Source: a virus
DNA: 64,000 nucleotides
Virus record (IMG/VR): IMGVR_UViG_3300009709_000003
Span: 1 to 64,000 of that record
Reading direction: 5' to 3' (one strand)
The position numbers and the translations under genes were made by a program. This document shows, in pieces, positions 47,369 to 63,938 of the stretch. The notes under the pieces were generated by a model, which saw only the letters and a program-made list of their open reading frames with translations, did not search any database and was not told where the DNA came from. The first letter of the stretch is position 1, and each line of letters starts with the position of its first letter.

Positions 47369-47677
47369 TTATTCAGGACGTACTTGCCGGCCTGGCCAAT
47401 TAGCACTAAGCATGTATGGAACCTGAGACCATCTTACATAACCAACAATCTCTGAGTGTCCCCAAACACGCAAGGCTTCTACCGCATCAAACTTACCGCA
47501 TTTCCATGGTTGGTCGGCATAGACCGAGAGCACAAATCTAGCTGCATGTCGTGATTGGCTATTGTGTGGTAGAGTAACTGCCCAATCGTCCATAGCCTCA
47601 GGATCAAATCGTGCTGCACCTGGACACCCATTGAGAATCGGGAACCAGGAAATTAGGTTCTCAATCAGCGTTGACAT
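47369..47677 (-). CDS. Hypothetical protein
   Basis: AARFVLSVY...FDAVEAL-x-x-W; TAATG-type coupling to the upstream gene. Confidence 0.55.
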   Translation of the reverse strand: MSTLIENLISWFPILNGCPGAARFDPEAMDDWAVTLPHNSQSRHAARFVLSVYADQPWKCGKFDAVEALRVWGHSEIVGYVRWSQVPYMLSANWPGRQVRPE

Positions 47678-48993
47678 TATTTCTTGTGCCCATACTTCAT
47701 TTGCTCAGTATCTTGATCTCTTGGGATAGAAAGGTCTTGCAAATCTTCACGTGCATCAATGTTGTCGGTCTTACCGTCGGTAGGCCAATCTATCAGAGCC
47801 ACTGCTTCTTTATCTGACCCTTCATCGTCGTCAACTTCTAGCAAGGACAGTTCTTTCACAAAAGCCTTCCAAGTCATCTCGTGATGACCACCATATTCAT
47901 TTGGTTGCCGACCAACCATGAAGGCGTTTATAGCTTCGCTCTCTGAGTTAAAGCCTAACATGACTTTATCTTCGTCGTATTCGCCTGTGTTTGCATGACA
48001 CTTATACATCACGTACACGTGGTTGGAATCATGATTGGGGCCAACGTAAACGTCCAACTCATCCCCGTCCGCACCGATATAACCAATGATCGAGCCATAG
48101 TCCGCACCCATCATCTTTTCTGTGCCGTCTGATGCAGGTTTAACCGACCATTGTGGATACTCAATGCGGACATTGAGTCCCTTAAACTTTATGTCGTGTC
48201 TTGGCTTATGATCCACAAGCGATCCAACGTCTTCCATTATTGGTAAACCTCTTTCTTCTATAGAGTCAGAGGTATTTAAAATTTTTTGCGCCTTTAGTTG
48301 TCGTCCCGACACTTCCAAGAAAGCGTTAGAACCCCATACAAGTTCGGCGTACGGATTTTTATAAGCCTTACTATTGGCTGTATATCCCACTCCCTCATTT
48401 CGCGTTTTATCTTTGCCCGGTTGTACGGGAGCATCTTTCTCAGCGTGGAGAGTAACATTGTAAGTGTCTCTGTTGACGTCTTCGTAGGCAGGATTCGGCT
48501 CACCAACACCATTAGTGTAAGGTGGCTGTACAGCAGGGAACTCCATAGTATCTTTAAAAGATTCTTCTTCATCGCTGTGGTTGTCGCCTAACTTCATGTC
48601 TGCGTCTTCAAACGCATTCTCATCCGTATAGGAGTCACTCCACATGCCGAATGTTGTTTCTTTTTGCTTGACTTTTTCGTTATGAAAGTCTGTTGTCAAG
48701 TCAGTAAGAGTCTCACCCATTTCCGCTTCTTTCTGAGCGTCTAGGCGAGTTCTGTTAAACAGCTGCATCTCTGGAAAATCATTATTTTTATTGGTGTCGT
48801 TGTAAACTTCTGGCTCAAGAGCAGCGGGTGCCAAATATGGAGCGTCGAGACCAGGCACGTCACCATCACTAGGCTCATCAACCACATTAACTGCGGCTTC
48901 AAGAGCGGCTATTCTTAGTAAATCAGCGACTTGAGCCAATACCTTTTGTCGGTCATGCTCTCTGTCCTGCCATGTCTTATATTTCTTACCCAT
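47677..48993 (-). CDS. Acidic protein with inorganic pyrophosphatase (InPase-type) domain
   Basis: GLNVRIEYP...M-x-ADYG-x-I-x-G-xx-GADGDELDVYVGP...YDEDKVMLGF at about 47850..48198. Confidence 0.75.
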   Translation of the reverse strand: MGKKYKTWQDREHDRQKVLAQVADLLRIAALEAAVNVVDEPSDGDVPGLDAPYLAPAALEPEVYNDTNKNNDFPEMQLFNRTRLDAQKEAEMGETLTDLTTDFHNEKVKQKETTFGMWSDSYTDENAFEDADMKLGDNHSDEEESFKDTMEFPAVQPPYTNGVGEPNPAYEDVNRDTYNVTLHAEKDAPVQPGKDKTRNEGVGYTANSKAYKNPYAELVWGSNAFLEVSGRQLKAQKILNTSDSIEERGLPIMEDVGSLVDHKPRHDIKFKGLNVRIEYPQWSVKPASDGTEKMMGADYGSIIGYIGADGDELDVYVGPNHDSNHVYVMYKCHANTGEYDEDKVMLGFNSESEAINAFMVGRQPNEYGGHHEMTWKAFVKELSLLEVDDDEGSDKEAVALIDWPTDGKTDNIDAREDLQDLSIPRDQDTEQMKYGHKK

Positions 48994-49010
48994 ACAAACT
49001 AATCAGGTAA

Positions 49011-52000
49011 CTACCACCTACGGGTGCCGCCTTTGCCGAGATTAAACGTATTGCGTGGGTGAAACACCCTACCTAACTGATTGCTAGTGTAGTTTTGAGC
49101 GCTCAACATTTCAGACTTCAGTCTTGATTCTTTCGAACGGGCTTTGGCACCTTGGGGTATGACTTGAGACTCTTGTACAAGCTTATGAACGTGTACAACA
49201 ACGCGCGCACAGTCATCGGAATTGTATCCACGCTTCTTACCTTTGTTAGCGTTGTAAATCTTAGATCCGTCCATAGATCTTTCAAGTTTAGAAATTTCGT
49301 AAAGCGCCACTGCTTGAGGTGACTTCATCGGTGGTTCAAGATCATCGTCATCTGGATTCTTTGGCAGCATACGAACTTTATTCATGTTCGTGTCGGCGAC
49401 AAATTTTACAAAATCATCTGCCTTAATAGTTTTCGTGTCTGCCTGCACACCCAAATTACGAATATGTTGAATCATACCAACAGACTGCCAATGGTCGAAT
49501 TCTACTTTGGCTATCTTTTGATATTTCAGCATTTCCTCAATAATTTGTTCGGCAGAATCGAACCAAACTTGTGTGGTAGAATTAGGCAGCACCCTCATTA
49601 TCCAGTCAAATACCGTTACAAAATCTGTGGTGCCATCGGGGTTCTGGACCAACTCCACATGAGCGGCTGCACCCGTAAAAGCGTCAAACATCTGTCCTGC
49701 ATCGAAAACTACGAACCGTGGAACGTCACGTCTAAATTCACAGGAAGTCATCATGGCCCGGAAATAAGGCGTTCCTATCTTATCCGTGAAAGGCATCGTA
49801 ACAATTTCTGCCGATGGCTTTAATTCTGGGTCGATAGCCTTTTCGTTAAATATATCAACATTAGTTATAAGAGGATTGGCTGCCAATGGAGGACGAGCAC
49901 CAAAATCTCGCATAGTACCAACGGGGTCGTTCTCCATAGCCTCTTTAAAATATTCTATTTTTTCGTTAGGATTCCACTCCCATGTCGCTTTATGGATAGC
50001 GTACATTGAGGGAGTGGTTTTAGCACGTTCTAGTAGCGTCATACCATAATCATCAACCGAAATGGGTGATGATATGGTCATGTTCAAACCCAACCACGAT
50101 ATCAACTTATGGTTCTTTACTGCAGATCGCACAGTACGCAAAGAGTTATCCATAACACGAAAAGCTTCTTCAGCTCCCAGAGATGCACCTTCTGACTGTT
50201 GAAATCGACATAATTCGTCGATCATGGCGGCAATACGAGTTCGTCCTGCAAGACCGGCAGAATTGGAGTTCTTAGAGTTCAATTTCAAGTTGAAATAATC
50301 GTTACGTATTTCTTTACCAGTCTCTAAGTATTTCCATTTCTCCATACCAGGTTTATGTTCTTGAATCGCTTCCTGTTCTTTTATCCAACCTACATATCTT
50401 TTGAACCAAGGTGATGCGTCTCGCAGATTTCTATATATTGTCCAAATTGTATCCGCCGACTGCGTTTCAGACGACGCGATAAATGTCATCTCAAACGCGC
50501 CTTCAGGGAGCAGTCCAAAATAATCTGCCAGATTTCTAGAAGGTTGACGTAAAGCGATGTTTACCAGACGATGCTCTATATAATTACCTATTTGAGCAGC
50601 TGTAACGGTCTTTCCAGAATTATGGTTTACAATCGACCCGGCCATAAAAGAATGAGTTCCAGGCACATGTAGATCAAACAGGTTTTGTGTTGTACCCATT
50701 TCAATCTTTTTGATTTTTAAAAATTCGAAGTTGTCGTCTGTCTTAGTGTATTTCCCAGTGCTAAGTACTTTATCAACACATGCCGCAAGTGCCGATTTTT
50801 TACGCGCGGAATTAAACCCAATAAGTTTGCTAAATCTAAGTATATTCTCCCCATAAATGCGGATCGAATATGAGTTGTGTGCAAACTTTTCTTGCGATCT
50901 AAACTTTCTCGACTTTGTCTTACTAATACTAGCCTTTACACCAAGTGCCCAAAGTAGCTGTTGTAGATCTTGTGCTAAAGATAGAGAGACCGTGTATGCT
51001 GCTACAGCTGCTTTATTAAAGCCACTTTTCTCTATAGCTGCGGTACCATCACCCTCAAAATACGACCTGAGATATGCCGTCACGTATTCTTTATTGAGCA
51101 TCCAAATACTTTGTGGAACTCTTTTCACATGGGCATTATGTCGCTCTAGTCCAAGTCCGTTTAACAATTCTCGTATGCCAATACCATTCAAATCGACAGT
51201 GATACCATCATCAGTGTAAGATACAGGCACTTTACCAAACACTCGCGCACATGTATCACTAAAGTGCTGAAGTGTTTCTTCATCACCATTTGTAAATCTT
51301 ATGCCGTATTCTCTATCGCATTGTCCTTCTGATGTAAAATACCCCAAAAGTGTGGCCAAATCTTCGGACCATATTTTTGGAATCACATATTTTGATTCAT
51401 AGTTCATCCTGCTTTCGCACGTTTTAACTAGTTCCGCGTTTATAGGCGTGTCTTTTGCTATGCTTGGCCAGTAGTTTGCCGTGCATTTTATCTTATCTCC
51501 TATTGTTAATTCATTTAGTTTATACCACCCAAATTTACCGGCTTTAATGGCCTGTACAGGGTGAATGTGACTACCTTCAACAGTAAGTCCTTTTACCAAT
51601 GTGATCTTTAAAGTGTCTGCCGTGCCAGCACAATATACATCGGATGCCAATTCATATCCATGTTCACCTAGCACACACTCATTGATTGATTGAAAAGTAT
51701 CCTTGTGTAAATCGCCCTTCCATAAGTCTTTTATTCTGACAAGACCATTATTTGTAACCACTCTAGTATCACCTGGTACGCATCGCATCCCCACTATTGC
51801 ATGCAGATGATTATACTCATGAATCAATTTATCTTGTACAAGTTCTGCTCTGGTTGTCGAGCATTTGGGGCATACATCATCATTGTATGTATTTGACCAT
51901 ACCAACAGTACCTCGGATTGTAGAGTTTCTTTACTTTTACCCCAAGCGTCCGTTGCTTCGGGTTTCATAGAATTACAAATTGGGCAATAAAGCCCAAAGA

Positions 52001-52232
52001 AGTCTCTGAGTACCTGGTATTGCCTGTTGAAATTAAACAGGGTCTTAATGTTCAAAAAAGACGGAGAAGAAACAAATTCAATAACATTTGGTGCAGGCTG
52101 CTGCAGAAAAGTTAACTCTTCTTCGTTTGCAACTTTAGCTTGCTCCTTGTTTTCTACCAATCCTTCAACGATTGTTGATATGGATGACATGAAGTTATTG
52201 TCATCGGTAGTTTTAGGAGGTTTACGTTTCAT
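49011..52232 (-). CDS. terL: Terminase large subunit (intein-containing)
   Basis: Spliced Walker A GMR|SGKT, Walker B AAMIDE, ISSP coupling motif, nuclease FDAG...FDHWQS...SDD. Confidence 0.9.
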   Translation of the reverse strand: MKRKPPKTTDDNNFMSSISTIVEGLVENKEQAKVANEEELTFLQQPAPNVIEFVSSPSFLNIKTLFNFNRQYQVLRDFFGLYCPICNSMKPEATDAWGKSKETLQSEVLLVWSNTYNDDVCPKCSTTRAELVQDKLIHEYNHLHAIVGMRCVPGDTRVVTNNGLVRIKDLWKGDLHKDTFQSINECVLGEHGYELASDVYCAGTADTLKITLVKGLTVEGSHIHPVQAIKAGKFGWYKLNELTIGDKIKCTANYWPSIAKDTPINAELVKTCESRMNYESKYVIPKIWSEDLATLLGYFTSEGQCDREYGIRFTNGDEETLQHFSDTCARVFGKVPVSYTDDGITVDLNGIGIRELLNGLGLERHNAHVKRVPQSIWMLNKEYVTAYLRSYFEGDGTAAIEKSGFNKAAVAAYTVSLSLAQDLQQLLWALGVKASISKTKSRKFRSQEKFAHNSYSIRIYGENILRFSKLIGFNSARKKSALAACVDKVLSTGKYTKTDDNFEFLKIKKIEMGTTQNLFDLHVPGTHSFMAGSIVNHNSGKTVTAAQIGNYIEHRLVNIALRQPSRNLADYFGLLPEGAFEMTFIASSETQSADTIWTIYRNLRDASPWFKRYVGWIKEQEAIQEHKPGMEKWKYLETGKEIRNDYFNLKLNSKNSNSAGLAGRTRIAAMIDELCRFQQSEGASLGAEEAFRVMDNSLRTVRSAVKNHKLISWLGLNMTISSPISVDDYGMTLLERAKTTPSMYAIHKATWEWNPNEKIEYFKEAMENDPVGTMRDFGARPPLAANPLITNVDIFNEKAIDPELKPSAEIVTMPFTDKIGTPYFRAMMTSCEFRRDVPRFVVFDAGQMFDAFTGAAAHVELVQNPDGTTDFVTVFDWIMRVLPNSTTQVWFDSAEQIIEEMLKYQKIAKVEFDHWQSVGMIQHIRNLGVQADTKTIKADDFVKFVADTNMNKVRMLPKNPDDDDLEPPMKSPQAVALYEISKLERSMDGSKIYNANKGKKRGYNSDDCARVVVHVHKLVQESQVIPQGAKARSKESRLKSEMLSAQNYTSNQLGRVFHPRNTFNLGKGGTRRW
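50619..51782 (-). mobile_element. Intein (388 aa) with LAGLIDADG endonuclease
   Basis: Starts CVPGDT, ends VNHN followed by Ser; LLGYFTSEG and YLRSYFEGDG blocks. Confidence 0.92.
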
Positions 52233-52567
52233 GGCTTTTTGGTTGGCATCTGGCTGGTCAAAACCAAACCAGCTTGAGCGGCCCTAAGACGTTGAACAGC
52301 ACTCTGGTAAGACTGCACCATAGATGCGGGAACTGTATCTACTACTGAGGCCCAACGAACGTGAATGGTATCACATGGAAAACTGTGTACAGGTGCCAAT
52401 TGAAGCGTCACAGACCCATTGTTTTCCACACGCTCTAAAAGCATAAATGGATTTGAGAGTTTAATGACTTCGGGAAGGCCAAGATCGAAAGCTTCCCCAA
52501 TCAACTGACGACCGGCAATATCAACAACCAAGAAAACTTTTGTCTGCGCGGAATATCCTTCGAGCAT
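52229..52567 (-). CDS. Small Sm-like fold protein
   Basis: GRQLIGE...LSNP...LAP...Y...GLVL pattern of phage Sm-like proteins. Confidence 0.45.
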   Translation of the reverse strand: MLEGYSAQTKVFLVVDIAGRQLIGEAFDLGLPEVIKLSNPFMLLERVENNGSVTLQLAPVHSFPCDTIHVRWASVVDTVPASMVQSYQSAVQRLRAAQAGLVLTSQMPTKKP

Positions 52568-52584
52568 TCAACTATCCAACTTTC

Positions 52585-53877
52585 TTATTCATCATCCACA
52601 AGGTGTGAAAATTGTGGGTATAATCTATGAATGGTATCGCAAATATCTATTTTACCGTATCCTGCAGCTTTCAACGCCTTAATCTCGTGGATTACTTGCT
52701 CTTCTTGCACTGCAGCCGATTTCAAAAAATTAGCAGGAATTACTGCAGCAAGACCCAAATCTTGAAATTCAACAAAGATCTGCGTGCCGTCGCCATGCAT
52801 ATCACGAACAACTTCACCGGTCTCTCCTTTAGGAAGAACCAAGAAAGTGCCACCACGTTCGCGCACTTCGCAATCGCTAGACAACTTGACTTCGTCACCA
52901 GTATGAAACCACTTACTTTGATCACGTTCCATGGTGTCGAGCATGCTGTCTGGCATAGTGTTTTGACTGGGGTCCGTAAAGGCTACTGCCTCGTCTATAT
53001 TGACGCGCTTACGAGTTTCTTTCTTGTCCTTGATCATTTGCGACTGTTTTGTGTTCCACAAAAGAGGCCGACCTAAAACATGTTTTTCAGGTGCTTGTTT
53101 ACCTGGTTGTGGACCAACCGGCGCTTGCGGTGGTGCATATTGATGCACATTTTGTGTTGGCTCAGCAGGTTTAGCGGGGGTTGGTTTCTCAGGCGTTTTT
53201 TCCTTCGCAAAATCGTGCCAATACATAGGACGACGACGAGTATTACCCATAGAAGAAGGAGCTACGAATCCAGCAGCCTCTTTAGAATATTGACGATGAA
53301 AAGTAAGAGGATTACGCGCACCAGGACTAAACATGTGCTCCAAATTAGTGATGGGACGACGAGTCTCTTCACGTTGCTCCCCAAAAGGAGGAGTGAACAT
53401 GCGATAGTTCTTAACGTTCTTCTGCAAGGTGCCGTTCTTGACCACAAGGTCTAGCGACGTCTGACAAGTTACATAAGGAGAACCGTTCCAGAAAAATAGA
53501 GCAGGTTCAAGAGTTCCACCTTTACGGATGTTAATAGGAAATTCGATTTCCGTTTTATTACCCATAACCGTTCGAATGGTTGCGCCAATGCGAACAATAC
53601 CCTCTTGTACTTTGCCGTCCGAAGTGGCGGTCTTGACAAGACCCAAAAAAGCCAATTTTGGTTTGCCTGGCAGGTTAAATTGGGCTAGGTGTGCAGCTAC
53701 TTCAGCCATAGCTCTTTGTTGAACAGTCATGCCTGTCGTAACTTTGGTGTTGTCGGACAGATCAAAGCGAATGGCTGCGGTTCGGCTCGATCCCTCAGAT
53801 AGTACATCTCGAATAGCGTCACGTGACGGTTTTTGGGACGCACTGGCAGCTTTAAATTTCTTGTAGGTTTCGCTCAT
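52585..53877 (-). CDS. Putative head-internal mosaic protein with an SH3-like module
   Basis: Segments separated by RTA/KEA/KQS/KSA; FHTGDEV...GETGEVV...VEF. Confidence 0.5.
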   Translation of the reverse strand: MSETYKKFKAASASQKPSRDAIRDVLSEGSSRTAAIRFDLSDNTKVTTGMTVQQRAMAEVAAHLAQFNLPGKPKLAFLGLVKTATSDGKVQEGIVRIGATIRTVMGNKTEIEFPINIRKGGTLEPALFFWNGSPYVTCQTSLDLVVKNGTLQKNVKNYRMFTPPFGEQREETRRPITNLEHMFSPGARNPLTFHRQYSKEAAGFVAPSSMGNTRRRPMYWHDFAKEKTPEKPTPAKPAEPTQNVHQYAPPQAPVGPQPGKQAPEKHVLGRPLLWNTKQSQMIKDKKETRKRVNIDEAVAFTDPSQNTMPDSMLDTMERDQSKWFHTGDEVKLSSDCEVRERGGTFLVLPKGETGEVVRDMHGDGTQIFVEFQDLGLAAVIPANFLKSAAVQEEQVIHEIKALKAAGYGKIDICDTIHRLYPQFSHLVDDE

Positions 53878-53889
53878 GGCTACTATTCC

Positions 53890-55611
53890 TTAGCGGTAAA
53901 CAAATAGTTCTGAGTCTAACAACTCAGCGTTAGCTACTCGTCCTGTACTTACCAATAGGTCAGATAATTCTTGTTTAAACTTGGTCGTGAACATAACTTC
54001 ACGTAGAGGCTCTTCGTCTGCTTCTTCGAACCCTAAAGAATCTATCCAATTTGAAATTAGATCGTTAGATACAATGGCTTCAGATAGGGTGTTGTCCCCA
54101 TTCGATGGGTCGGACCACTCCGGTGGGTATTTATCAAATAGGGTCAAAGTAGATTGCAGTGTTTTGGCGGTATCAATTTCGGCTGTTTTCTGCCCAGCCC
54201 TCACGGCTGGGCCTTCATACTCGTCATAAGTATTTATATCGTACCCATAAGTTAGGTGGGCATTTTCTGGGTCCCAACCCATAGCCTGACCGCCTGGATT
54301 CAAGCCGCCACCAGCCGCGAGATCTGTATTATCTTCACCTTCCGCAGTGCCGGCATCTGGGAGATCATGGCTTTTAAAGCGCTCAAGGGGGTTTCTCTTG
54401 TCTATTTCACCAGGCTGCATCTTGTCGGTTTGGGGCTTAACTTTCCAGTTTTCTTGGGCCATTCGGTGGCCTTCCAGACTAGATTGTTTGTTATGTGCCC
54501 AGTCTGGATCTTTAATAAACTCTGGCTCTTCATTAAAGTGCTCGTTCAGCCCCTCTTTATCGGCCTCGGTGATAGTGCGCAACAAGTCATACGAGTTGCT
54601 ACCAGCTTCTTTATCCTCTTCTGCTGTTACGGGGGCTCTAGCGTCCAATCCGCCATCTTGGGTATGAATAAGTCGTTCAATCTCGTTTAAAGCTTCACGG
54701 TGCTGAATCGCAAATTTATGGTGTGGCAGCCAAGACATACCAGAAGCAGACCGCACTAGCCAAAGTGCCATCGAAGGAACAAACCCGAATTCATGTTGTC
54801 CATTTGTAAAAATTGTCATATCTGGGAGTTCAGACAGACTAGTATCATAAGTTGAAGCACGTTTGTTAGTACCAGGCACACTAACCGTGTCACCTATTTT
54901 AATCCTATGACTGGCACACCAACCACCAGCAACTTCGATAACATCCGTGCAGGCTGCTTGCCAAGACCCTGGAGCACGAGGTTTAATATTGGCAACAATT
55001 TTAACTACTTTACCGCGATCCGCAAATACGATGTCGATTGGGAACTTGACTTGCCCCATATGGAAAGATGCAACGCGTCTATCATGTTGGGGGAACCAAA
55101 GTCCAAACCCATCTCCGATGGAATCGTAGGCTTGTAAACCTGATGCTTGTTGTTTTGGTGTAGCCGCTACATCACATACCACTTTGTGACCACCAATAGT
55201 GATCTCGGCATTAGCGTGTTCAGATCGCACCCAATGTGAAGCAGACAATTTAAAATATGGCTTCTTGTTAGGTTGTGTGGTCTGGTTTTTGACCTTCCCG
55301 AGTTGAGTGGACAAACCGGGCATTTGTTGCTCGATTTTATTTTTAACATCCAACATTTGGTCAGGTTTCGGTTGACGGACTTTTTTGGGTTTTGTCAGTT
55401 GTGTGTTTGATTGTTGGCTGGTTCTACGATGCGACTCCCCATAATTCATGCCATCCGGTGTAGCGGCCACTGTCATGCCTATTTGCTTCTTATCGTCGGA
55501 TTTAGTGATGCGAACCAGCATGGATTTAAAACCATTTTGCTCCACATGCTTTACGACGGTACCCTCTCTACCGTCTCCTAACTTTACGTGCTCACCAACT
55601 CCGTACGACAT
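53890..55611 (-). CDS. Putative head-internal mosaic protein with a DUF192 domain
   Basis: DVAATP-xx-Q-xx-GL...GLWF...FHM-xx-VKFPIDIVF...VIEV-x-GG...IKIGD at about 54880..55210. Confidence 0.65.
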   Translation of the reverse strand: MSYGVGEHVKLGDGREGTVVKHVEQNGFKSMLVRITKSDDKKQIGMTVAATPDGMNYGESHRRTSQQSNTQLTKPKKVRQPKPDQMLDVKNKIEQQMPGLSTQLGKVKNQTTQPNKKPYFKLSASHWVRSEHANAEITIGGHKVVCDVAATPKQQASGLQAYDSIGDGFGLWFPQHDRRVASFHMGQVKFPIDIVFADRGKVVKIVANIKPRAPGSWQAACTDVIEVAGGWCASHRIKIGDTVSVPGTNKRASTYDTSLSELPDMTIFTNGQHEFGFVPSMALWLVRSASGMSWLPHHKFAIQHREALNEIERLIHTQDGGLDARAPVTAEEDKEAGSNSYDLLRTITEADKEGLNEHFNEEPEFIKDPDWAHNKQSSLEGHRMAQENWKVKPQTDKMQPGEIDKRNPLERFKSHDLPDAGTAEGEDNTDLAAGGGLNPGGQAMGWDPENAHLTYGYDINTYDEYEGPAVRAGQKTAEIDTAKTLQSTLTLFDKYPPEWSDPSNGDNTLSEAIVSNDLISNWIDSLGFEEADEEPLREVMFTTKFKQELSDLLVSTGRVANAELLDSELFVYR

Positions 55612-55621
55612 AGCTTATTCC

Positions 55622-56410
55622 TTAGTTCAAGGGCGCGATGAACTTAAACTCATCGCTTGTTTTCTTCATGGCGTTCTTGGCTTCACCTAATATGATGTCA
55701 ACCATACGCTGTTTAGTCATATGGTCATAATTATCCACAATGGTTTGTGGCACCCCAGCTCGCTGCAACTGAGAACGAAAATTCATATACTCGGATGACA
55801 ACTTGTTAACCATTTCAGTGGTAAACACTTCTATGATATATTTAGTTGCCGCCAAAATCATCTGCTCAGAGGAACGCAGTTTACTGAGGTCAACAATTAT
55901 ACTTCGTAGAGTATTTGCAGCCTGTAAAAAAGTTTGCATTTTTTGTGGGCTCCAAGGAATAGGTTGCCCAGTAAATTCATCCTTTGTCTCCACAAAGGAA
56001 TTATCAATGATGGCCTTACTTCTACCGTAAAGATCCCACAGTTCGGTAAGGTCAGATTTTTCAGAAGTGTCCAAAGGAGAATTTAGTATGGATTTATTTG
56101 GGATTTTTGTTAGAGTTGGATTAGAAGCTAAAGCAGCTTTACGCGCTTGTTGAATAAGCGCAATTTTGTCATTCTCTTCAGGAGACATGTGATTTTTAAA
56201 ATGATGCCAAATAGTTTTAGCTCTAGGCGGTTTGACATCTGGATGTGATTGTGCCAGCATGTTGGCTAACAGCGCAGCTGCACCGCGATACGTTTCGCCT
56301 TGCATAATTAAGCCATACACCAAACCATACAATTTTGGGTTCTTATCCGCCCACTTGCACATACGGCAACGAGCACTGTGCGGGTCTGTATCATTCGGCG
56401 TGCTTGTCAT
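55622..56410 (-). CDS. Probable terminase small subunit (Zn finger + HTH)
   Basis: RCRMC...G-x-TY...IWHHFKNH followed by a helical region; upstream of terL. Confidence 0.4.
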   Translation of the reverse strand: MTSTPNDTDPHSARCRMCKWADKNPKLYGLVYGLIMQGETYRGAAALLANMLAQSHPDVKPPRAKTIWHHFKNHMSPEENDKIALIQQARKAALASNPTLTKIPNKSILNSPLDTSEKSDLTELWDLYGRSKAIIDNSFVETKDEFTGQPIPWSPQKMQTFLQAANTLRSIIVDLSKLRSSEQMILAATKYIIEVFTTEMVNKLSSEYMNFRSQLQRAGVPQTIVDNYDHMTKQRMVDIILGEAKNAMKKTSDEFKFIAPLN

Positions 56411-56705
56411 ATATCATCCTGATTAGTTTATCTAAATGTATAGTATTACCCGCATTATCAATGGCTCTAAGGGCGATACGGCCAGTGCGCATATATGTCA
56501 TTATGTCTTTGTTGCGATTTAATGTACGATATGCGTCTTCAATGGATTTAAAATGATGTAATACATCATACACTGTGCCACGTTTTAAACAAATGGCAAA
56601 AAGTGGTCCAGGTCTTTGTAGAAAACTGAAAATTGGATTGCGGTATGGACTATCAACCGTGATATTCAAGTCCATAGTGGACTGGTTGACAATACAATAC
56701 CGCAT
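56391..56705 (-). CDS. Hypothetical protein
   Basis: 104-aa ORF with tight packing. Confidence 0.5.
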   Translation of the reverse strand: MRYCIVNQSTMDLNITVDSPYRNPIFSFLQRPGPLFAICLKRGTVYDVLHHFKSIEDAYRTLNRNKDIMTYMRTGRIALRAIDNAGNTIHLDKLIRMIYDKHAE

Positions 56706-56708
56706 ACA

Positions 56709-59135
56709 TCATAGTCCGGTCAAGGGCTGGGGATCGTTACCAGTGTACTGCATAGTAATAACACCACGCGACTCAGATGAGCGTACTTTTACAGTAGCAA
56801 CGCCCGCATCCAAGTCCATGAAAGTCAACTTGGGCTTGCCAAGAATGCCGAAATCGTGGTAGTATTTATCGCTTTCAAGACCCTTAATGAAAGAAATGAT
56901 TTGATGTTTCACTCCGCCATCAGAGAAATTCTTAAAATGTTCTGGATCCCAAGCCACATCTAGCATGAGGTATCCATTATCCTCGGACGAGGTAGTGGAG
57001 TACATACGCGTCACGTGCATTCTAGTGCGCGTTTTAGATGGAGGCATGCCATTGTCTTTATGGTCATAGTCCTTGCGATCATCCTTAGAAGGCGTGTTAT
57101 ATGCCATAGGACGATTGACAGGGGCTGCCTGTTTTGTAGCACCAGTCATCTCAAATGCGCCATGCCCCATAGCTTCCAAGAAAGCTGGCACACCGCCATC
57201 ATAATAACGGTCAATTGCGTCCGTTAGTTCGCCAGGGGAGGCATGTTCAATACTCTCCTCAGAACCCGGCTCAAATACATCCATGCACCATGCGCGAGCT
57301 TCCTCGATCAAATCTTCTGGAATGCGTTGTGCGACTTTGTTTGCTTCCATGTCACTTTTTGACTTCGGTTGCTGCTGCTTCAAATCTTTACGCTGTGAGT
57401 GCATAGAACCTCGCAATAATCTCATGACCCGGTCAAGAGTCTGTCTCGACTCAGTCATGGCAACTGCGAGTGCATCAGTCTTGTCCATTTCACTAAATGC
57501 CATCACTTGCTTGGGGTGCCGTTGCAACCAATCCAACAAAGATGCTGAGATAGTGTCCGCAACAGATGCATCAGTGGCTGCCTGAGCAATCGCCCACTCC
57601 GCCAAGGAACGAATATCCATCGCTGTCTTAGCCGAGCCACCCTTCATGTGTTTGAACATTTCCACTTGCTGGAGACGGTGCTTAGCTTCTTCTTCCGTGT
57701 CGTAGCAACCACCATTCCAATCGGGGTTGTGTTCACTTTTAACGCAGTACTTACCTTTTTCCTTAACAATCTTAGCAAATTTTTGCGCCGATTCTTTACG
57801 ATTATTCAAAGATCGTGGGATATTGCGAGTCCATTGTTTCCCATATGAACCAAAATATTTAGTCCAATAATCCTTAGTGGCCTTATCTACAGCCATCTTA
57901 TCAAGGCTTGCAGTAAATTCCATTTCGGCTTCGGCAGTACAACCATTGTGCTTATCCAAAATGGAGTTGGCGGTATCAAGGACAATATCCTTAGATGCAG
58001 CCATGTGGAAACCGTACTCCTGTACATTGACAGGACCATTTGTACCAGCCAACATAACCATCGGCAGATCAGCAGCTGCATCCACCTGCACAAACCCACT
58101 GACCGGGGTTCCAGCAGATGTGTTGAGCGCGCCAGTACGGTCCATATACACTCGGTCTAGTTTATCGTCCTCGTCGCGTTTGTTAAGTTCAAATGACAAC
58201 TTAAGAACATTGCCACCTTCGGACATCTCGGTATGACCGGGAACCGCTGAGTATCCGGGGTTTGCCGCGTTAAAACGACCAAGAATCCAACGAGCGGCCT
58301 CTTCAAGATCGGCGGCTACGTCCGCTGTCTTATCGGTCTGCTGTACAAGAGGACTGACAGCCATTGGTCCGGTACCTTCCATTTCTTCAGAAGATAGACC
58401 ACGACTACGCTCCATGGTGTCTCCACCTTGAGGTTTTACGTCGGCGTCTGCCTTTTTCTTAGGCTCGTGATACTTAGCTTCCTCGTCCAAATCTTTCTGA
58501 CTAGGCTTTTTACCAGTACCACGACAAGATGGACATGAGGCAGGACCATGACCCTTTACTTCACCCATGCCACGACACATGGTACAATCTTCAGCAGTGG
58601 CTTCCTTTTCAAAAATCAAGCTTAGAACACGATCGCCACGACCGTCAACGTCCACCAGACGAGCATTTTTGACATTAGTGTCCGCCCACAACAACAGCTC
58701 GCTGTCTGTGGGTCGACGCTCGCGAAATTGCACATCATACACAAAGCGACTGGGACTAACTTGGTGTTCGGCAAGCTTGGTCAAATTTACAATACGACCA
58801 TTAGCCATTGCTTTACGAATGTCACTAGCATTTGCTTTAGTGGCAATCAAAAATTGCTCTGGCACGACATAAGTCTCACCGGGTTGAGTCTGAACTAGAT
58901 ACCCTTCATTATTTTTACCAGCGACAGAACCGGTATAACGCATTTGATGATGATTAAATACAACCCGGTCACCAAACTTAAATTTGGAGTCTTCAGGAAG
59001 TTCAACCTTTTCCGCCAAACGTTGCGTTGCCCAATCATCTAAATTCGATATAGAACTAAGATCTGAGGACTTAGGGGTAGCAGTTTGCTCTTCAGAAGCT
59101 AGCTTTGCAATAAAATAATCGTCGGTGAGTTCCAT
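56709..59135 (-). CDS. Putative head-internal mosaic polyprotein (808 aa)
   Basis: SH3-like, CxxCxGxG Zn finger, YW-xx-YF-xx-YG, KYCV...GCY and YYxGG modules separated by K-x-A motifs; SD GAGG. Confidence 0.6.
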   Translation of the reverse strand: MELTDDYFIAKLASEEQTATPKSSDLSSISNLDDWATQRLAEKVELPEDSKFKFGDRVVFNHHQMRYTGSVAGKNNEGYLVQTQPGETYVVPEQFLIATKANASDIRKAMANGRIVNLTKLAEHQVSPSRFVYDVQFRERRPTDSELLLWADTNVKNARLVDVDGRGDRVLSLIFEKEATAEDCTMCRGMGEVKGHGPASCPSCRGTGKKPSQKDLDEEAKYHEPKKKADADVKPQGGDTMERSRGLSSEEMEGTGPMAVSPLVQQTDKTADVAADLEEAARWILGRFNAANPGYSAVPGHTEMSEGGNVLKLSFELNKRDEDDKLDRVYMDRTGALNTSAGTPVSGFVQVDAAADLPMVMLAGTNGPVNVQEYGFHMAASKDIVLDTANSILDKHNGCTAEAEMEFTASLDKMAVDKATKDYWTKYFGSYGKQWTRNIPRSLNNRKESAQKFAKIVKEKGKYCVKSEHNPDWNGGCYDTEEEAKHRLQQVEMFKHMKGGSAKTAMDIRSLAEWAIAQAATDASVADTISASLLDWLQRHPKQVMAFSEMDKTDALAVAMTESRQTLDRVMRLLRGSMHSQRKDLKQQQPKSKSDMEANKVAQRIPEDLIEEARAWCMDVFEPGSEESIEHASPGELTDAIDRYYDGGVPAFLEAMGHGAFEMTGATKQAAPVNRPMAYNTPSKDDRKDYDHKDNGMPPSKTRTRMHVTRMYSTTSSEDNGYLMLDVAWDPEHFKNFSDGGVKHQIISFIKGLESDKYYHDFGILGKPKLTFMDLDAGVATVKVRSSESRGVITMQYTGNDPQPLTGL

Positions 59136-59217
59136 GAGATATCCTCTTAGTTGTTGGCGTAAACAGAGTCATGTGACCCGTTAATGTTCATGCTTTAGCA
59201 TTGGACGACGGTCCCCG

Positions 59218-61971
59218 TTACGCAATTGTTTCCATGTGTTGATCAGGAGCCAGTTCCTCTCCATACAATTCTTTTGCCTGTTCGGGAGTGAGGATATCAA
59301 CATGACCATCGTTCAACATCTCGTGTAGACTGTCCTCGTCTTCTCCAGGCTGCGTAAGAATCCATGCCTTAAATTTCTCCAATGCCTCTGCAGCACTAGA
59401 CGCTTTAACTTCTGCATCAACTTGGGGATCGGCATTAACAAGACCACCGATAATCCAATAAACCGATTTACCACCGTCTTGTTGCGCTGACTTGCTCACG
59501 GAATCCCATTTCTTCGTCTGCGCGTTATCGCGTCCAGACGAGTCTGGTTCAGTTGAGGTATCGGACAGCGAGACACCCTTTTGTTCAGTCGCAGGATGTT
59601 GAGCCTTGGGCTTACCTGCACCGAAATTGCCGGGGTCTTTGCTCTCCGTACCAGGTTCAGTAGAAGTGTTCGAGAAATTACCTTGCGGCTTAACTTGATT
59701 ATTGATCTTGGGTTGTTTAAAACCTTCGTCACTAGTGGTGTCTTTTCCAAGTACGCCCTTTGCAACGCTGACTGCATCGGGCTGTTGGTTGTTAACTTTG
59801 GGATCCATCGCAGACGCTTGATGGATCTTACTTGCGTCAATCGTCCACACGCGGCAAGCAATGGGAAGTACTGCTTCAGGCGAGAACTCGTCTTTGTACT
59901 CTTTTTTAAACTGTGCAATAGCAGAAACCGGATCCATGCCTTGCGACCTATAATACATCAAAGCGGCTTGAATGACTTGAATGTCGCTCCAGCCAAATTG
60001 TTCTTCAGGTTGCATTTGCACGCCCATTTCGTCAGCAAGACCTTCTGCAGGCTCTTCCAACGGACCACCACCTTCCGGCATAGGACCGTCTGATTCCATG
60101 GGTGCTTCCTCAGAACCAAATTGAATCTGTGCAAATTGTTTGTGTTGTGGCATGTTGCGAAGTTCATCAAGATCGGTCTCGATGTCTCGAACAATATCCA
60201 TCTCTTTTTTCTCTTCTGCAGGGTCGTCCATATGTTCGTCATCAGCAATCTGATGGAAACCCGCATTAACCAACTTATCCCAAGTGTTTGCTAAAGCCTC
60301 TTGGTCATCAGCTGCTACGATAATATGGCGCTGCTCAGCCAATTTGTGACTGGCCACACGTGAAGCAGGAGCGGCCAAAGTAAAAATCTTCACTTCGCTC
60401 ACCTGACTGTCTTCTAGAGCTGCAGTCACATAATCTGGGTCGATATTAGACGCACACTTACCACAATGCAGATGCTCCGCATCTTTAGGCATAGTGTAAA
60501 CGTTAGCATGGTCACAAGATGGACACCCAACTTTCAAACCAGCTTCGACGGTAAACACCGCTGGAGGGGGCGTTGATTGCACCAAGTAGATGTAATCATT
60601 GATGGCCCCATCCATGTTGCGCATGGAATACTTCCGAGGAGTCTTGCCATTGCTAAGCACAACGTTATTATCGGCATCCACAAAAAGTTTATAGCTGTCA
60701 AACGAGACGGACGAGCCGTTCAACAATTGTTGCTCAATGCTGGATGCTTTCAAGATTTGAGCCGCGTCAGGCAATTTCAATGCATCCTCTTGTTGTTCAT
60801 TAACGTCAGGATCTTTAGGCCCAGCCGCCATCTCGCCCAAACGTGAGCCATGCTTCCCATCACCGTCAGAATCAAGCATGTGATCAGTGATAAAGATATC
60901 CCAACCACCTGGATAATAGTCGTTGACGGCATCGACAATTTCGGCGTCCTGCATATCTTCATGAAAGAATGCGAGATTGTTTTCACGCAGCCAGTCAAAA
61001 GCTGCCTCGATCATCATCTGGTCGTCCATCTGTGGTTTCATACGCTGGGCGGTAGGCATCATCCCAGTACCAGCCACCCCAGTGTTAAGTTTGGGGTCTG
61101 GGGTCTGATTGTTGGGTTGTTGCACCTGTTGATCCGGTGGCACCGCCTGTTGAGTCTGGGGAGGCTTTGGCACATTCAGAGCATTCAAAGATTGAGCGTC
61201 CATAGGCTGTTGTGAAGGCATGCCATTCGGCAAAGCTTGTGAGATCCGGCTTGCCACTCGTTTCTCAATGGTGTCGTTTTCAACTTCAGCCGTGCTACCA
61301 AGTGTGCCTCCAGCGTTGGGGTCATTGGCTTGCGGAGTAGAAGACACCGAAGCACGTTGAACCAAATCGCGAATAAAAGCACGAGCGCGCACGGCTTGCA
61401 AGTCAGACCCACCCAAACGATGGTGCTCAATCAGAGCATTATAGTCTTCTTGAGACTTAATGTCACGAGCAATGCGGGTAAGATGAGCAACAGGCAAATT
61501 GTTAAAAGACACTTTACTAAGAACGGATGACACCACTTTATGGATACTAGATTGCTTGTTTCCACCAGTGTAGTGATTCAAGAGCTGATTAAGATACCCA
61601 TATGAAATAGTGTCGGTGGGTGCTTCATACCACAACTTTTGCAAATGGGTAGCGAAACGCTTCAAGGTAGCATCTTTCGGATTTTCACGTGACGCATTCT
61701 TTACGCCTTCAAACAGATCAAAACGCGTGGTAATGGCGGTGTCACTTTCCAATTCGGCCTTGGTATGCAAGGCATCTGCTTTTTTACGTGCTGCAGCCAT
61801 AAACGGCAGATTAGCAGCAACTTCATGTCGCTGACGTTCCTCTTCTTGTTGCTCTTGAAGCTTAGCATGGCGTTCAAGCAATTTGTCGGCGTTCTGAGAC
61901 AGCGGGCCATCTCCTGAAACGTCTGCGACTTTTTGTTTGATAAACGAACCGAGGGCTTTCTTGGTCTGCAT
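59218..61971 (-). CDS. Putative head-internal mosaic polyprotein (917 aa)
   Basis: Low-complexity linkers, YYPGG module, CPSC...CGKC ribbon, C-terminal module after SKSAQQ. Confidence 0.6.
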   Translation of the reverse strand: MQTKKALGSFIKQKVADVSGDGPLSQNADKLLERHAKLQEQQEEERQRHEVAANLPFMAAARKKADALHTKAELESDTAITTRFDLFEGVKNASRENPKDATLKRFATHLQKLWYEAPTDTISYGYLNQLLNHYTGGNKQSSIHKVVSSVLSKVSFNNLPVAHLTRIARDIKSQEDYNALIEHHRLGGSDLQAVRARAFIRDLVQRASVSSTPQANDPNAGGTLGSTAEVENDTIEKRVASRISQALPNGMPSQQPMDAQSLNALNVPKPPQTQQAVPPDQQVQQPNNQTPDPKLNTGVAGTGMMPTAQRMKPQMDDQMMIEAAFDWLRENNLAFFHEDMQDAEIVDAVNDYYPGGWDIFITDHMLDSDGDGKHGSRLGEMAAGPKDPDVNEQQEDALKLPDAAQILKASSIEQQLLNGSSVSFDSYKLFVDADNNVVLSNGKTPRKYSMRNMDGAINDYIYLVQSTPPPAVFTVEAGLKVGCPSCDHANVYTMPKDAEHLHCGKCASNIDPDYVTAALEDSQVSEVKIFTLAAPASRVASHKLAEQRHIIVAADDQEALANTWDKLVNAGFHQIADDEHMDDPAEEKKEMDIVRDIETDLDELRNMPQHKQFAQIQFGSEEAPMESDGPMPEGGGPLEEPAEGLADEMGVQMQPEEQFGWSDIQVIQAALMYYRSQGMDPVSAIAQFKKEYKDEFSPEAVLPIACRVWTIDASKIHQASAMDPKVNNQQPDAVSVAKGVLGKDTTSDEGFKQPKINNQVKPQGNFSNTSTEPGTESKDPGNFGAGKPKAQHPATEQKGVSLSDTSTEPDSSGRDNAQTKKWDSVSKSAQQDGGKSVYWIIGGLVNADPQVDAEVKASSAAEALEKFKAWILTQPGEDEDSLHEMLNDGHVDILTPEQAKELYGEELAPDQHMETIA
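59479..59497. repeat. 19-bp exact repeat, copy 1 (second copy 62643..62661)
   Basis: ttgttgcgctgacttgctc, encoding SKSAQQ on the minus strand; extends to 25/27 identity. Confidence 0.85.
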
Positions 61972-62034
61972 TGTTATACCTTATACGCACGTGCTTGCAC
62001 ACTATTATAAATAAAGCACACCTTGGGTAATCGA

Positions 62035-62400
62035 CTATTTTTTGGCGTCAAAACCGCTACAGTCAGTAGTTATGCATATATTACACATACTATTCCATTT
62101 TCTACACTGCATGCAGATACTATCCCCAGGGGTGTAGACATCTTTAATGCTAAGAGCAGATATGAATTCGGCACCACTAGCTTTAGATAGCATTCTGTAC
62201 GCTGTATTTATACGTATGAATTCTGAAGTATCACCACCAACATCAGGATGTTTAGTGGTAGCCAACTGTTTAAACTTGGATTTTATTTCAAGTTGTACAG
62301 TGTCTAATGTAGGGTATGTATTTGAAGTTGACCAAATTTCGGCATGAACCTTGACCAGATCCCACACATTTAAAGTTTGGGCGGCCTCTTTCAGGTTCAC
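62035..62400 (-). CDS. J-domain protein with C-terminal Cys cluster
   Basis: IKSKFKQLATTKHPDVGGDTSEFIRINTAYRML (HPD motif). Confidence 0.8.
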   Translation of the reverse strand: MNLKEAAQTLNVWDLVKVHAEIWSTSNTYPTLDTVQLEIKSKFKQLATTKHPDVGGDTSEFIRINTAYRMLSKASGAEFISALSIKDVYTPGDSICMQCRKWNSMCNICITTDCSGFDAKK

Positions 62401-63938
62401 TTGCTGCCTTTGCCGTTCACGTAGTCATAATCTTCTTGATTAAATCGCCATTCTTTCTGAGCCAACGCTACAGCTTGATTATCAGGTAGTCTACTGTACT
62501 TACGTGATTGTTCCCACTCGTCATTATCACGAAGTTCTTGCACCAATTCACGCCATGCAGACTGTTCATCTGCGGCCTGCAGCATGATACGCCAACCTTG
62601 ATTGTTAATGAAATACCAAGTCGGTATTTTGCCACCGCCGTTTTGTTGCGCTGACTTGCTCTGGTAACCACCGGTTACCGGGAATACTTGCAAGCTGGTC
62701 AACTTACCATCGTTTGAAAATGATGCCTTAACCAAAGAACGCTTGATATGATCACCACTGCGAACCACATGCGCAGCCTCAATAACCAACGAGCCGTCCT
62801 CGCCACGCCAATGTGACAAAGGCGCAACCGTACCAGATTGGGCGTCTTTGTTGGCTTTACGCATAGCCAAACGTAGGCGACGTGGAATGTCACGCACCCA
62901 CATCTCGCCGTACTCGTGAAAGTACTCAGTCCAATACTTCTCTGTTGCCGTGTCAACCGCCACTTTACTCATGTTAGCCATTTTATCTACCTTTCTGTTT
63001 GACGTTTTACTTACCATGGGATCAGCCATGGTGTCAACCATGGATTTGTTGACTTTGCCAGTACCTTTGCAAGCAGTACATTCTTTATCTGTACTACCCA
63101 TTCTAGATGTATATCCTTTACCACCACATGCATCACAGGTAACTTTCATGCTGGTCTTCTTTGGTGCCGGTTTAGGGGCTTCGTTGTATTTAGGTGGCGT
63201 TGATGCCGGAGCGAGAGCATTAGACTTCATGAGTTGTGAAACGTCGCTACGCAGAAATCCAAGATTGCGTTTAATGTCAGACAGGGCTGCGTTTGGGTTG
63301 TCAACCATTTGCAGTGTAATATCGATCAATTGTAGAATCTTTTGTGGAGCATCGGCTGGAATTTCAACTGCGCCTTTAGCAGTACGCTGGTTGGCAAAAG
63401 CCTTACCATAATTCTCAGCGGTTTCAAGCAAAGATTGAGTAAAAGCGATTTTAGTCTTTAGATTGATGTTCTCAGCCGTAGCAGGCAAATCTTTAACACT
63501 TGAGACCAAATCATTCACGGAAGCGGTTATGTGCTTCCAAACTTCAACAGGAACACTTACCAAAGTGGCAACGCGTTTAGATGACGCCCCACGCTGCTTA
63601 ATGGGACCGAAATAGCGATCAAATTGATCACTCTCATCGGTAGTCATATCACGTTCCACTTTCATATCTGTTCTCATAAGAGCGCCATACTGTGACGCAT
63701 CTAAAGTTTTGTTGATAATCTGTACAGGCCCCTGTGTTGGTATCAACACCATACTTTGATACTGATCGGACCACATCAATTGTGTGCCGTCACTAAATGT
63801 AGTAGTGCCCGATCGTACAGTAGGCATTAAAACCGTACGCAATACTTGTACGTTAGGCGTAGTAGAAGTATTAGTCGTCGTACCGGCTGGAGTTGCCGGC
63901 GTTTGGGGAGCTTGAACTTGTGCAATTTTAGAACGCAC
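62397..63938 (-). CDS. Putative head-internal mosaic polyprotein (513 aa)
   Basis: CDACGGKG...CTACKGTG Zn finger, YWTEYFHEYG module, C-terminal module after SKSAQQ. Confidence 0.6.
   Translation of the reverse strand: MRSKIAQVQAPQTPATPAGTTTNTSTTPNVQVLRTVLMPTVRSGTTTFSDGTQLMWSDQYQSMVLIPTQGPVQIINKTLDASQYGALMRTDMKVERDMTTDESDQFDRYFGPIKQRGASSKRVATLVSVPVEVWKHITASVNDLVSSVKDLPATAENINLKTKIAFTQSLLETAENYGKAFANQRTAKGAVEIPADAPQKILQLIDITLQMVDNPNAALSDIKRNLGFLRSDVSQLMKSNALAPASTPPKYNEAPKPAPKKTSMKVTCDACGGKGYTSRMGSTDKECTACKGTGKVNKSMVDTMADPMVSKTSNRKVDKMANMSKVAVDTATEKYWTEYFHEYGEMWVRDIPRRLRLAMRKANKDAQSGTVAPLSHWRGEDGSLVIEAAHVVRSGDHIKRSLVKASFSNDGKLTSLQVFPVTGGYQSKSAQQNGGGKIPTWYFINNQGWRIMLQAADEQSAWRELVQELRDNDEWEQSRKYSRLPDNQAVALAQKEWRFNQEDYDYVNGKGSK
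62643..62661. repeat. 19-bp exact repeat, copy 2
   Basis: Identical to 59479..59497. Confidence 0.85.

Follow-up and report, generated by a model that had tools for sequence, protein, structure and literature searches.

A K/R-x-A Motif in Head Proteins of a Large Uncultivated Phage: A Candidate Cut Code of Its Head-Maturation Protease

Organisation of the Head-Gene Region

The DNA analysed here, referred to below as the window, comprises positions 1 to 64,000 of IMGVR_UViG_3300009709_000003, a complete IMG/VR virus record of 160,708 bp with direct terminal repeats. The phage is uncultivated and represented by a metagenome record only. Every gene between 39.9 and 63.9 kb, where the head genes are located, lies on the minus strand, and the head proteins encoded there carry an excess of a three-residue motif composed of a basic residue, any residue and Ala (K/R-x-A, or [KR].A as a search pattern). 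The distribution of this motif suggests that it is probably the cut code of the phage's own head-maturation protease, of the phage G gp19 family, which would process multi-module internal head proteins.

The gene order begins with the major capsid protein (39888..41102; phrog_2522, E 6.5e-60, match starting at residue 81), a 261-amino-acid (aa) Ig-like protein, an 881-aa protease-scaffold protein (42109..44754) and the portal (44945..47308; phrog_16240, E 1.4e-72). The portal is followed by a 102-aa open reading frame (ORF), a 438-aa protein, terL with a LAGLIDADG intein and a 112-aa ORF, and then by the 430-, 573-, 262-, 104-, 808- and 917-aa proteins, a 121-aa J-domain protein and a 513-aa protein. 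The nearest relative in GenBank is Virus Rctr197k, whose capsid protein is 70% identical, and more distant relatives of the capsid protein are found in phage G, in Erwinia and Dickeya jumbo phages and in cluster C mycobacteriophages.

A first-pass annotation had described six large proteins around terL (438, 430, 573, 808, 917 and 513 aa), called accessory proteins here, as acidic strings of short unrelated domains delimited by K/R-x-A(S) and released by a protease. All six minus-strand ORFs and every motif example quoted for them were found where that annotation had placed them. Four of the proteins are indeed acidic, while the 430- and 513-aa proteins are slightly basic.

Enrichment of the Motif in Head Proteins

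The pattern [KR].A occurs 64 times in the six accessory proteins versus 37.8 expected, which corresponds to z 4.4 in global shuffles and z 5.0 when residues are shuffled inside 30-residue blocks so that local composition is kept. The capsid protein, the protease-scaffold protein and the portal, pooled together, contain 38 occurrences versus 22.9 expected (z 3.7). No enrichment is seen in the remaining 12,359 aa of the window (65 versus 67 expected) or in 28,442 aa encoded beyond it (238 versus 231), and the shuffles thus bear out the proposal that the motif is concentrated in head-region proteins. The terminase and the tail proteins show no signal, and neither does the decoration-like 261-aa ORF adjoining the capsid gene, which is assumed to be external on an Ig-like PHROG match only.

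The signal is specific in spacing and orientation. The patterns [KR]A, [KR]..A, [KR]...A, A.[KR], A..[KR] and [DE].A, counted as controls, do not depart from expectation in the six proteins. When 1,120-1,294 gapped residue pairs (spacings 1-4) are scanned without bias, K.A ranks first, with z 4.2 for the six proteins and z 4.7 when the head core is added. Composition or helix periodicity was rejected as the cause, because the signal survives the block shuffles and the other spacings are flat. The Ser alternative of the motif, as originally formulated, did not hold: [KR].S is at expectation in the six proteins (26 versus 27.6) and falls to 0.82x across the 114 protease-scaffold homologues described below, so the Ser half is unsupported and the motif is reduced to K/R-x-A.

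The position of the motif is also non-random. It lies within the first 20 residues in seven of nine head-set proteins versus 10 of 143 other ORFs (p 2.6e-7), in agreement with the suggestion that it marks the N-termini of the capsid protein, the portal and the protease. As a method control, the cleavage pattern [LI].E was counted in T4 proteins; gp22 contains 16 occurrences versus 5.7 expected (z 5.1) and gp21 gives z 3.1, with control patterns flat in both cases. The statistical signature is thus of the kind found here in the protease-scaffold protein, with 27 [KR].A sites versus 11.5 expected. Mild enrichment in the primase-helicase (z 2.5) and in NrdA (z 2.0) is best taken as chance among 201 ORFs.

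Sites in the Capsid Protein, the Portal and the Protease

The capsid protein begins with a leader of about 114 residues containing three K/R-x-A sites, at residues 10-12, 64-66 and 112-114. The last of them, F-Y-R-Q-A|S (40761..40769, minus strand), falls at the junction of the variable leader and the conserved shell domain, and the phage G capsid protein aligns to that of the window from residue 116 onwards. In the alignment with 32 relatives this leader/shell column holds [KR]-x-A in about 27 and [KR]-x-S or -G in three more; the N-terminal NPY[KR][KR]xA is mostly kept too. The portal carries the site GDVRKQA|M at residues 15-17 (nucleotides 47258-47266), and YGDVRKQA is conserved at the N-terminus in most relatives.

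The protease-scaffold protein consists of a protease (residues ~1-335) fused to a long acidic scaffold-like region. Its gene sits between those of the portal and the capsid protein, with the 261-aa ORF also intervening. The protein matches phrog_18299, a head maturation protease, with E 5.5e-27, and a Dickeya JA29 'head maturation protease' in tblastn (E 1e-11), and its protease domain aligns to phage G gp19 in HHalign with a probability of 99.8 and E 9e-30. A sequence search of the PDB with the protease profile returned no relevant match. Across 28 diverse homologues S199 (in GSMGC) and H225 never vary and H112 almost never does. A catalytic role for these residues is possible, although H225 could be a zinc ligand instead.

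Two of the sites in this protein stand out by their positions. The protein starts with MAFFRQA, in which R-Q-A (residues 5-7; 44734..44742, minus strand) is conserved in relatives and represents a candidate self-cleavage site. The K-A-A at residues 333-335 (43750..43758, minus strand) lies just past the protease domain, with K-T-A or K-A-A in both aligned relatives, and is a candidate cut freeing the protease from the scaffold. Two metal-binding elements were also noticed in the protease domain: an inserted zinc ribbon (CxxC...CxxC; residues ~134-168) between the conserved His and Ser, which gp19 does not have, and a conserved C-x-C...CxxC...CxH cluster directly after the Ser (residues ~202-225), which phage G gp19 has in common with it.

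Conservation of the Signal Across the Clade

The homologue set comprised 114 protease-scaffold proteins of about 500-1,470 aa, all metagenomic. They contain 3,195 [KR].A occurrences versus 1,603 expected, a ratio of 1.99 with z ~46, a value that overstates significance because the homologues are related and not independent, and 98% of them individually reach z > 2. What matters in this result is the effect size and the specificity rather than z: other K/R-A patterns are at 1.0-1.1x and [DE].A at 0.74x. The excess persists in the weakly conserved scaffold part alone (1.97x). The motif is placed within the first 14 residues in 107 of the 114 homologues, with the consensus F-x-K-x-A. The residues around the sites are not random either; Pro is strongly excluded at both positions following Ala, Q/S/A are favoured after it, F/Q/T/I/V at x, and I/L before K/R.

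Accessory proteins were compared with their orthologues in G001, G002 and G004, three related genomes that are either complete or large. Enrichment in [KR].A recurs in those of the 917-, 430-, 573- and 438-aa proteins and is absent from neighbouring non-head ORFs. Window sites are kept in 73 of 180 orthologue comparisons (41%) versus 18-23% for control K/R-A patterns. Lys and Arg swap at conserved sites (RQA, KIA, KTA), and this interchange points to selection on protein rather than on DNA.

The protease-scaffold protein of Virus Rctr197k is enriched, albeit less specifically, with A.[KR] also at z 2.9. Mycobacteriophage LinStu gp97 shows weak enrichment (z 2.8, with A.[KR] at z 2.5) and Dickeya phage JA29 none, which indicates that the strong code does not reach these two more distant cultured relatives.

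Sites at Module Boundaries

The coincidence of sites with module boundaries is clearest in the 808-aa protein (56709..59135, minus strand). Its AlphaFold model (md020cbda8e53; 17 homologues, mean predicted local distance difference test (pLDDT) score 66) contains seven predicted domains, at residues 50-101, 111-180, 269-434, 452-498, 506-588, 606-658 and 704-795, and the predicted cuts fall after residues 13, 41, 109, 122, 158, 179, 229, 271, 415, 454, 505, 602 and 670. All seven linkers hold a K/R-x-A site or have one within three residues (p 0.0003 versus random placement in a permutation test), whereas control patterns cover two to five only. Modules of this protein have homologues in 317 cluster representatives, stand-alone forms included, and its relatives span 636-2,097 aa through gain or loss of modules, with three or four inter-module columns conserved in the giant ones.

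Individual cassettes illustrate this arrangement. The DnaJ-type CxxCxGxG zinc finger (residues 180-229; 58449..58598; weak PF00684 match, E 0.017) is flanked by E-K-E-A and K-K-K-A; it is missing from all three aligned relatives, one of which has K-Q-A at that place and the others x-V-A or x-Q-A. The VDxATKxYW module (residues 416-454; 57774..57890) follows D-K-M-A, and a second copy follows S-K-V-A in the 513-aa protein (BLASTP between the copies, E 1.5e-9). In two relatives this module is a separate gene of about 104 aa beginning MSVMEKTA|VD or MESKMQKTA|LD, i.e. a short leader ending in the motif is retained in the stand-alone form. K-L-A is kept in 13 of 16 members of the module family.

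The next module, three strands plus a helix (residues 455-505; 57621..57773; AlphaFold domain 452-498), is flanked by Q-K-F-A and A-K-T-A. About 100 cluster representatives contain it, many of which are stand-alone proteins of 65-150 aa, and it is often immediately preceded by [KR]-x-A (KYA|V, KVA|V, RYA|Y, KTA|V, RQA|Y). The ESM Atlas shows a structural likeness of this module to DUF3721/DUF2188 modules fused to portals and to S78 prohead proteases, which is a lead only. The C-terminal module (residues 671-808; 56712..57125; AlphaFold domain 704-795) comes after T-K-Q-A; it exists as a stand-alone 147-aa homologue (P0023) and at the C-terminus of many proteins of 700-2,100 aa. A Foldseek comparison of the 808-aa model with the PDB gave SH3/Tudor-like small-barrel matches only and no functional lead.

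The 513-aa protein (62397..63938, minus strand; 13 sites versus 6.0 expected; PF00684, E 1.8e-4) is built of an M-R-S-K-I-A leader, a zinc finger, the VD module, K-S-A|QQ and a tail. A search for shorter homologues of it returned none. Its S-K-S-A-Q-Q junction (62643..62661) is identical over 19 nucleotides in the DNA alignment to that of the 917-aa protein (59479..59497), both on the minus strand. The idea that the two proteins share a C-terminal module was rejected, as only a 12-residue junction is common and the tails are unrelated. The 19-nucleotide identity between otherwise unrelated tails suggests module exchange via recombination at the junction.

The remaining accessory proteins show a similar pattern at several junctions. 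The acidic 438-aa protein (47677..48993, minus strand; PF18823, E 3.7e-25; phrog_4660, minor head protein) consists of a conserved N-terminal region, a linker and an InPase domain (residues 267-377), and the homology blocks of all three relatives stop at residues 187-194, beside the predicted cut after residue 188. In the 430-aa protein (52585..53877, minus strand), with 10 sites versus 4.8 expected and five of them within the first 84 residues, homology breakpoints at residues 201 and 388 fall on sites; its orthologues are enriched as well (11 versus 6.3, 11 versus 5.7 and 14 versus 6.8). The 573-aa protein (53890..55611, minus strand) contains DUF192 (residues 146-244; PF02643, E 7.5e-20) followed by N-K-R-A (250-252), and its G001 orthologue has 12 sites versus 4.2 expected. 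Across the six proteins 15 of 65 BLAST block ends against three relatives lie within two residues of a site versus 5.4 expected; these 15 ends represent about ten distinct breakpoints.

The very acidic 917-aa protein (59218..61971, minus strand) starts with M-Q-T-K-K-A|L, and M-Q-T-[KR]-x-A is kept in all four aligned members of its family, the homologue search having returned three relatives only. Nine of its sites crowd into residues 1-240, and when each site was compared with each homologue, 25 of 42 cases showed conservation. Homologues stop 5-7 residues past S-K-A-A, where the window protein has S-K-S-A (K-S-A at 827-829) and an extra tail of 88 residues. The disordered stretches 246-406 and 567-659 contain no sites.

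Proposed Processing and Its Weak Points

Taken together, these observations make it reasonably likely that K/R-x-A is recognised by the head-maturation protease encoded in the same region. Inside the prohead the portal, the capsid protein and the enzyme itself would each lose a short N-terminal leader to this protease, which would further cut the capsid-protein leader of about 114 residues and chop its own scaffold part into small pieces. The six accessory proteins encoded around terL would be cut as well, wherever sites are exposed, including several module junctions in the 513-, 438- and 430-aa proteins. As the sites lie at linkers and junctions, such cutting would release small domains: the zinc finger, VDxATKxYW, the beta-alpha module, DUF192, InPase and others. 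Cuts in the 917-aa protein would mainly dismantle the N-terminal region of 240 residues and detach the C-terminal tail.

A number of points weigh against this reading. Many sites fall inside folds, those of the protease domain and of the mature capsid protein among them, and not all of these can be cut. Cutting after Ala, the action of this particular protease and the presence of the accessory proteins inside the prohead are steps that we infer from the sequence, and retention of folded pieces in the capsid, like their injection, would be a further step still. HHalign gave no significant match between the protease and T4 gp21 (probability 0.13), and the genome has a second, ClpP-like protease gene (PF00574, E 6e-16) 3.3 kb upstream of the 513-aa gene. 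The inflated clade-level z has been mentioned above. Overall enrichment is absent from the 2,175-aa protein of Virus Rctr197k and from the giant homologues of the 808-aa protein (1,141-2,097 aa), and some module boundaries, e.g., the N-terminal edge of DUF192, have no site.

The 917-aa protein is the most difficult case. Its AlphaFold model is poor (mean pLDDT 51), its sites show no preference for linkers, with 8 of 14 in low-confidence segments versus 7.7 expected, and four conserved sites lie within a confident helical domain. The protein looks, on this model, like a multi-site N-terminal propeptide followed by mature parts rather than a string of mini-proteins. The proposal that boundaries repeatedly fall on the motif can therefore be upheld in the 808-aa protein and at several junctions of the 438-, 430-, 513- and 917-aa proteins, but not across the 917-aa protein as a whole, and mapping onto AlphaFold domains divides the two largest proteins in the same way. 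A polyprotein-like modular build is supported to that extent. As for protease processing of polyproteins, the processing signal itself has good comparative support (enrichment, conservation about twice that of controls, exclusion of Pro, a T4-like signature), and the 917-aa protein is the one that fits the picture of a chain of mini-proteins less well.

Alternative Explanations

The alternative that survives best accepts the motif as a real protease site and assigns the six proteins to a disposable prohead core or auxiliary scaffold, which would assist in assembling the head or setting its size, be cut up and be expelled before or during DNA packaging, with no cargo and no injection. We regard it as possible though rather unlikely, and it stays a live alternative, since most accessory proteins are acidic. 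Four of the six are strongly so (net -19 to -55), as would suit a scaffold, T4 gp22 being acidic, and are unlike the basic internal proteins of T4. Equal site density in the protease-scaffold protein, the many sites in the helical N-terminal domain of the 917-aa protein together with its long disordered acidic stretches, and the lack of a recognisable anti-defence or host-takeover enzyme among the modules in Pfam, PHROGs and NCBIfam all fit such a core. On the other hand, compact folded modules recur as stand-alone genes and in many architectures, and module shuffling with retained leaders resembles a cargo cassette system more than a scaffold. The modules also include InPase, a domain of phage polyvalent proteins thought to be packaged (PMC5512222).

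That the sites are cut by another enzyme, either the ClpP-like protease (genome positions 67,250-67,972) or a host protease, is improbable. A Clp-family gene does stand close to the head genes, and in staphylococcal phage 80alpha a host protease processes the N-termini of the capsid and scaffold proteins. Phage G ClpP and ClpX, moreover, were detected in particle proteomics (PMC12484599). Nonetheless, the densest and most conserved sites are found in the head-protease protein itself, including its N-terminus and the domain/scaffold junction, a layout that matches the self-processing of T4 and SPN3US (PMC5694885), and the ClpP-like gene belongs to a hydrolase cluster in a separate transcription unit.

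It is equally hard to credit that K/R-x-A is a binding or structural motif, e.g., a peptide that contacts the portal or the inside of the capsid, or that it arises from the composition of disordered Ala/Lys-rich segments. Conserved sites inside folds would agree with this (in the protease NENKDAF and NPKTARG, in the 808-aa protein the G-K-V-A of domain 1, in the 917-aa protein the four of the helical domain), as would a weak A.[KR] enrichment in scaffold regions (1.25x). Against it, z is the same in block shuffles that preserve local composition, patterns with another spacing or orientation show no excess, and Pro is excluded behind the Ala. The motif is also present in the N-terminal leaders of seven of the nine head proteins and at the capsid leader/shell junction, and the signature equals that of the proven T4 cleavage motif.

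Comparison with Known Systems

Processing of head proteins at the proposed K/R-x-A sites would have clear parallels in other large phages. The proteases of phiKZ, 201phi2-1 and SPN3US (A/S/G-x-E) and of T4 (L/I-x-E) cut the capsid protein, the scaffold, themselves and packaged internal or ejection proteins (PMC5694885, PMC10052503). In the phiKZ, 201phi2-1 and SPN3US group 9 to 19 head proteins are cut, long propeptides have multiple sites, and the protease cleaves itself (PMC5694885, PMC10052503). The T4 protease gp21, whose substrates are gp23, gp22, gp67/68 and the internal proteins IPI-III and Alt, likewise has one short motif shared by the capsid leader, the scaffold, the protease and packaged internal proteins, and IPI-III and Alt carry short N-terminal leaders that end in the motif and target them to the capsid. 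Unlike in T4, the motif here is K/R-x-A and not L/I-x-E, the protease is fused to the scaffold and has zinc-binding inserts, and the putative accessory substrates are long and multi-module with internal linker sites, while those of T4 are single small proteins with one leader.

The system resembles that of the phiKZ, 201phi2-1 and SPN3US head proteases (gp175, gp245) in that a three-residue motif occurs in many head proteins of a large phage. It differs from them in specificity and lineage, and their sites were mapped by mass spectrometry whereas those reported here are predicted. No description of cutting at most inter-domain linkers of a single polypeptide was found for these phages (PMC5694885, PMC10052503).

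Polyvalent proteins offer the other comparison. They are many-domain proteins encoded beside the portal and terminase and predicted to be packaged, and release of their domains by proteolysis has been proposed (PMC5512222). Their 2-15 unrelated domains in variable architectures correspond to the seven domains of the 808-aa model, and the InPase of the 438-aa protein belongs to their phage-specific domains (PMC5512222). Processing of polyvalent proteins is attributed to an embedded zincin-like metallopeptidase (MPTase) (PMC5512222), whereas the putative cut signal described here is common to the capsid protein, the portal and the scaffold, and the modules are mostly small with no recognisable enzyme identity. 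No MPTase match was found in the six accessory proteins in Pfam, PHROGs or NCBIfam, and of the polyvalent hallmark domains (MPTase, methylase, ART, ParB, lysozyme and others) they contain none except the InPase of the 438-aa protein.

A cultured counterpart of the enzyme is phage G gp19, annotated as a head-maturation protease, which has a homologous protease domain and the SMGC...CxxC...CxH cluster in common with it. It is rich in [KR].A (10 versus 3.4 expected) and begins with MIKYTFPVKIA, and the phage G portal carries FQMAKQA near its start. Unlike the window protease, gp19 is a separate protein of 300 aa, with neither a fused scaffold nor the extra zinc ribbon, and the capsid protein of phage G lacks a long leader. 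No reported cleavage specificity of gp19 was found (PMC12484599). The same phage encodes ClpP and ClpX, both detected by particle proteomics (PMC12484599).

Outside phages, a likeness can be drawn to the herpesviruses. Their assemblin (a UL26-type protease-scaffold) cuts (V/L/I)-x-A|S. The protease-scaffold fusion, Ala before and Ser after the presumed cut (F-Y-R-Q-A|S in the capsid protein) and a defined residue two positions upstream are shared features. Lys/Arg replaces the aliphatic upstream residue in our case, and the likeness is one of sequence. Assemblin is not known to cut multi-module cargo proteins. No published report of a K/R-x-A specificity was found among the papers searched, which is not proof of its absence. 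Relative to T4 and phiKZ processing and to polyvalent proteins, the new element is, in our best reading, a predicted K/R-x-A specificity acting on multi-module head proteins.

Meaning and Further Observations

If this reading is true, the capsid-internal proteins of a large clade of uncultivated phages would become readable from sequence alone; metagenomes contain no fewer than 114 protease-scaffold homologues of this clade, in which phage G may also have its place. The protease would then represent a third specificity class (basic, any, Ala) beside the Glu-directed proteases of T4 and phiKZ, with an Ala before the cut as in assemblin. The same reading would place many widespread orphan phage mini-proteins in a functional context, since they would be made either within head polyproteins or from genes of their own, with a leader to be removed. 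The claim is open to direct test in phage G, which can be cultured, encodes a homologous protease and shows the same motifs at its N-termini. Speculatively, and with considerable doubt on our side, the K/R-x-Ala code might define the whole capsid-internal proteome of a phage-G-like lineage (including the 160-190 kb clade), in which cassettes with their own cut site recombine at junction DNA and the mini-proteins set free stay in the capsid until they are injected as fast-evolving effectors.

An example of a head protein read from sequence in this way would be a 467-aa ORF far from the head genes (genome positions 119618-121021, minus strand; locus L049:619-2022). It has 11 K/R-x-A sites versus 3.3 expected (z 4.8), eight of them within the first 190 residues and frequently with Ser next, and matches nothing in Pfam or PHROGs. 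It may be a head-internal substrate of the protease encoded remote from the head genes.

Several features of the genome deserve mention in their own right. Two proteins, the 1,958-aa fibre-like protein (28994-34870) and the 855-aa ORF (1-2565), are very poor in Lys/Arg, unlike the head proteins, and the expected number of [KR].[AS] is only about six in the former and about five in the latter. The ClpP-family gene (67250-67972 of the genome, minus strand; locus L056:3351-4073) lies just upstream of the head-region genes and clusters with genes for an SLT transglycosylase, a patatin-like phospholipase and a GH5 cellulase-like protein. The intein interrupting terL (49011-52232) is of the LAGLIDADG type (PF14528, PF14890), and inteins are also present in several protease-scaffold homologues of other phages. 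Finally, a stand-alone J-domain protein (62035-62400; PF00226, E 6e-6) is encoded between the 917- and 513-aa genes, and DnaJ-type CxxCxGxG zinc fingers occur inside the 808-aa (58449-58598) and 513-aa (~63040-63150) proteins, so that DnaJ-like chaperone parts are scattered across three head-region genes.

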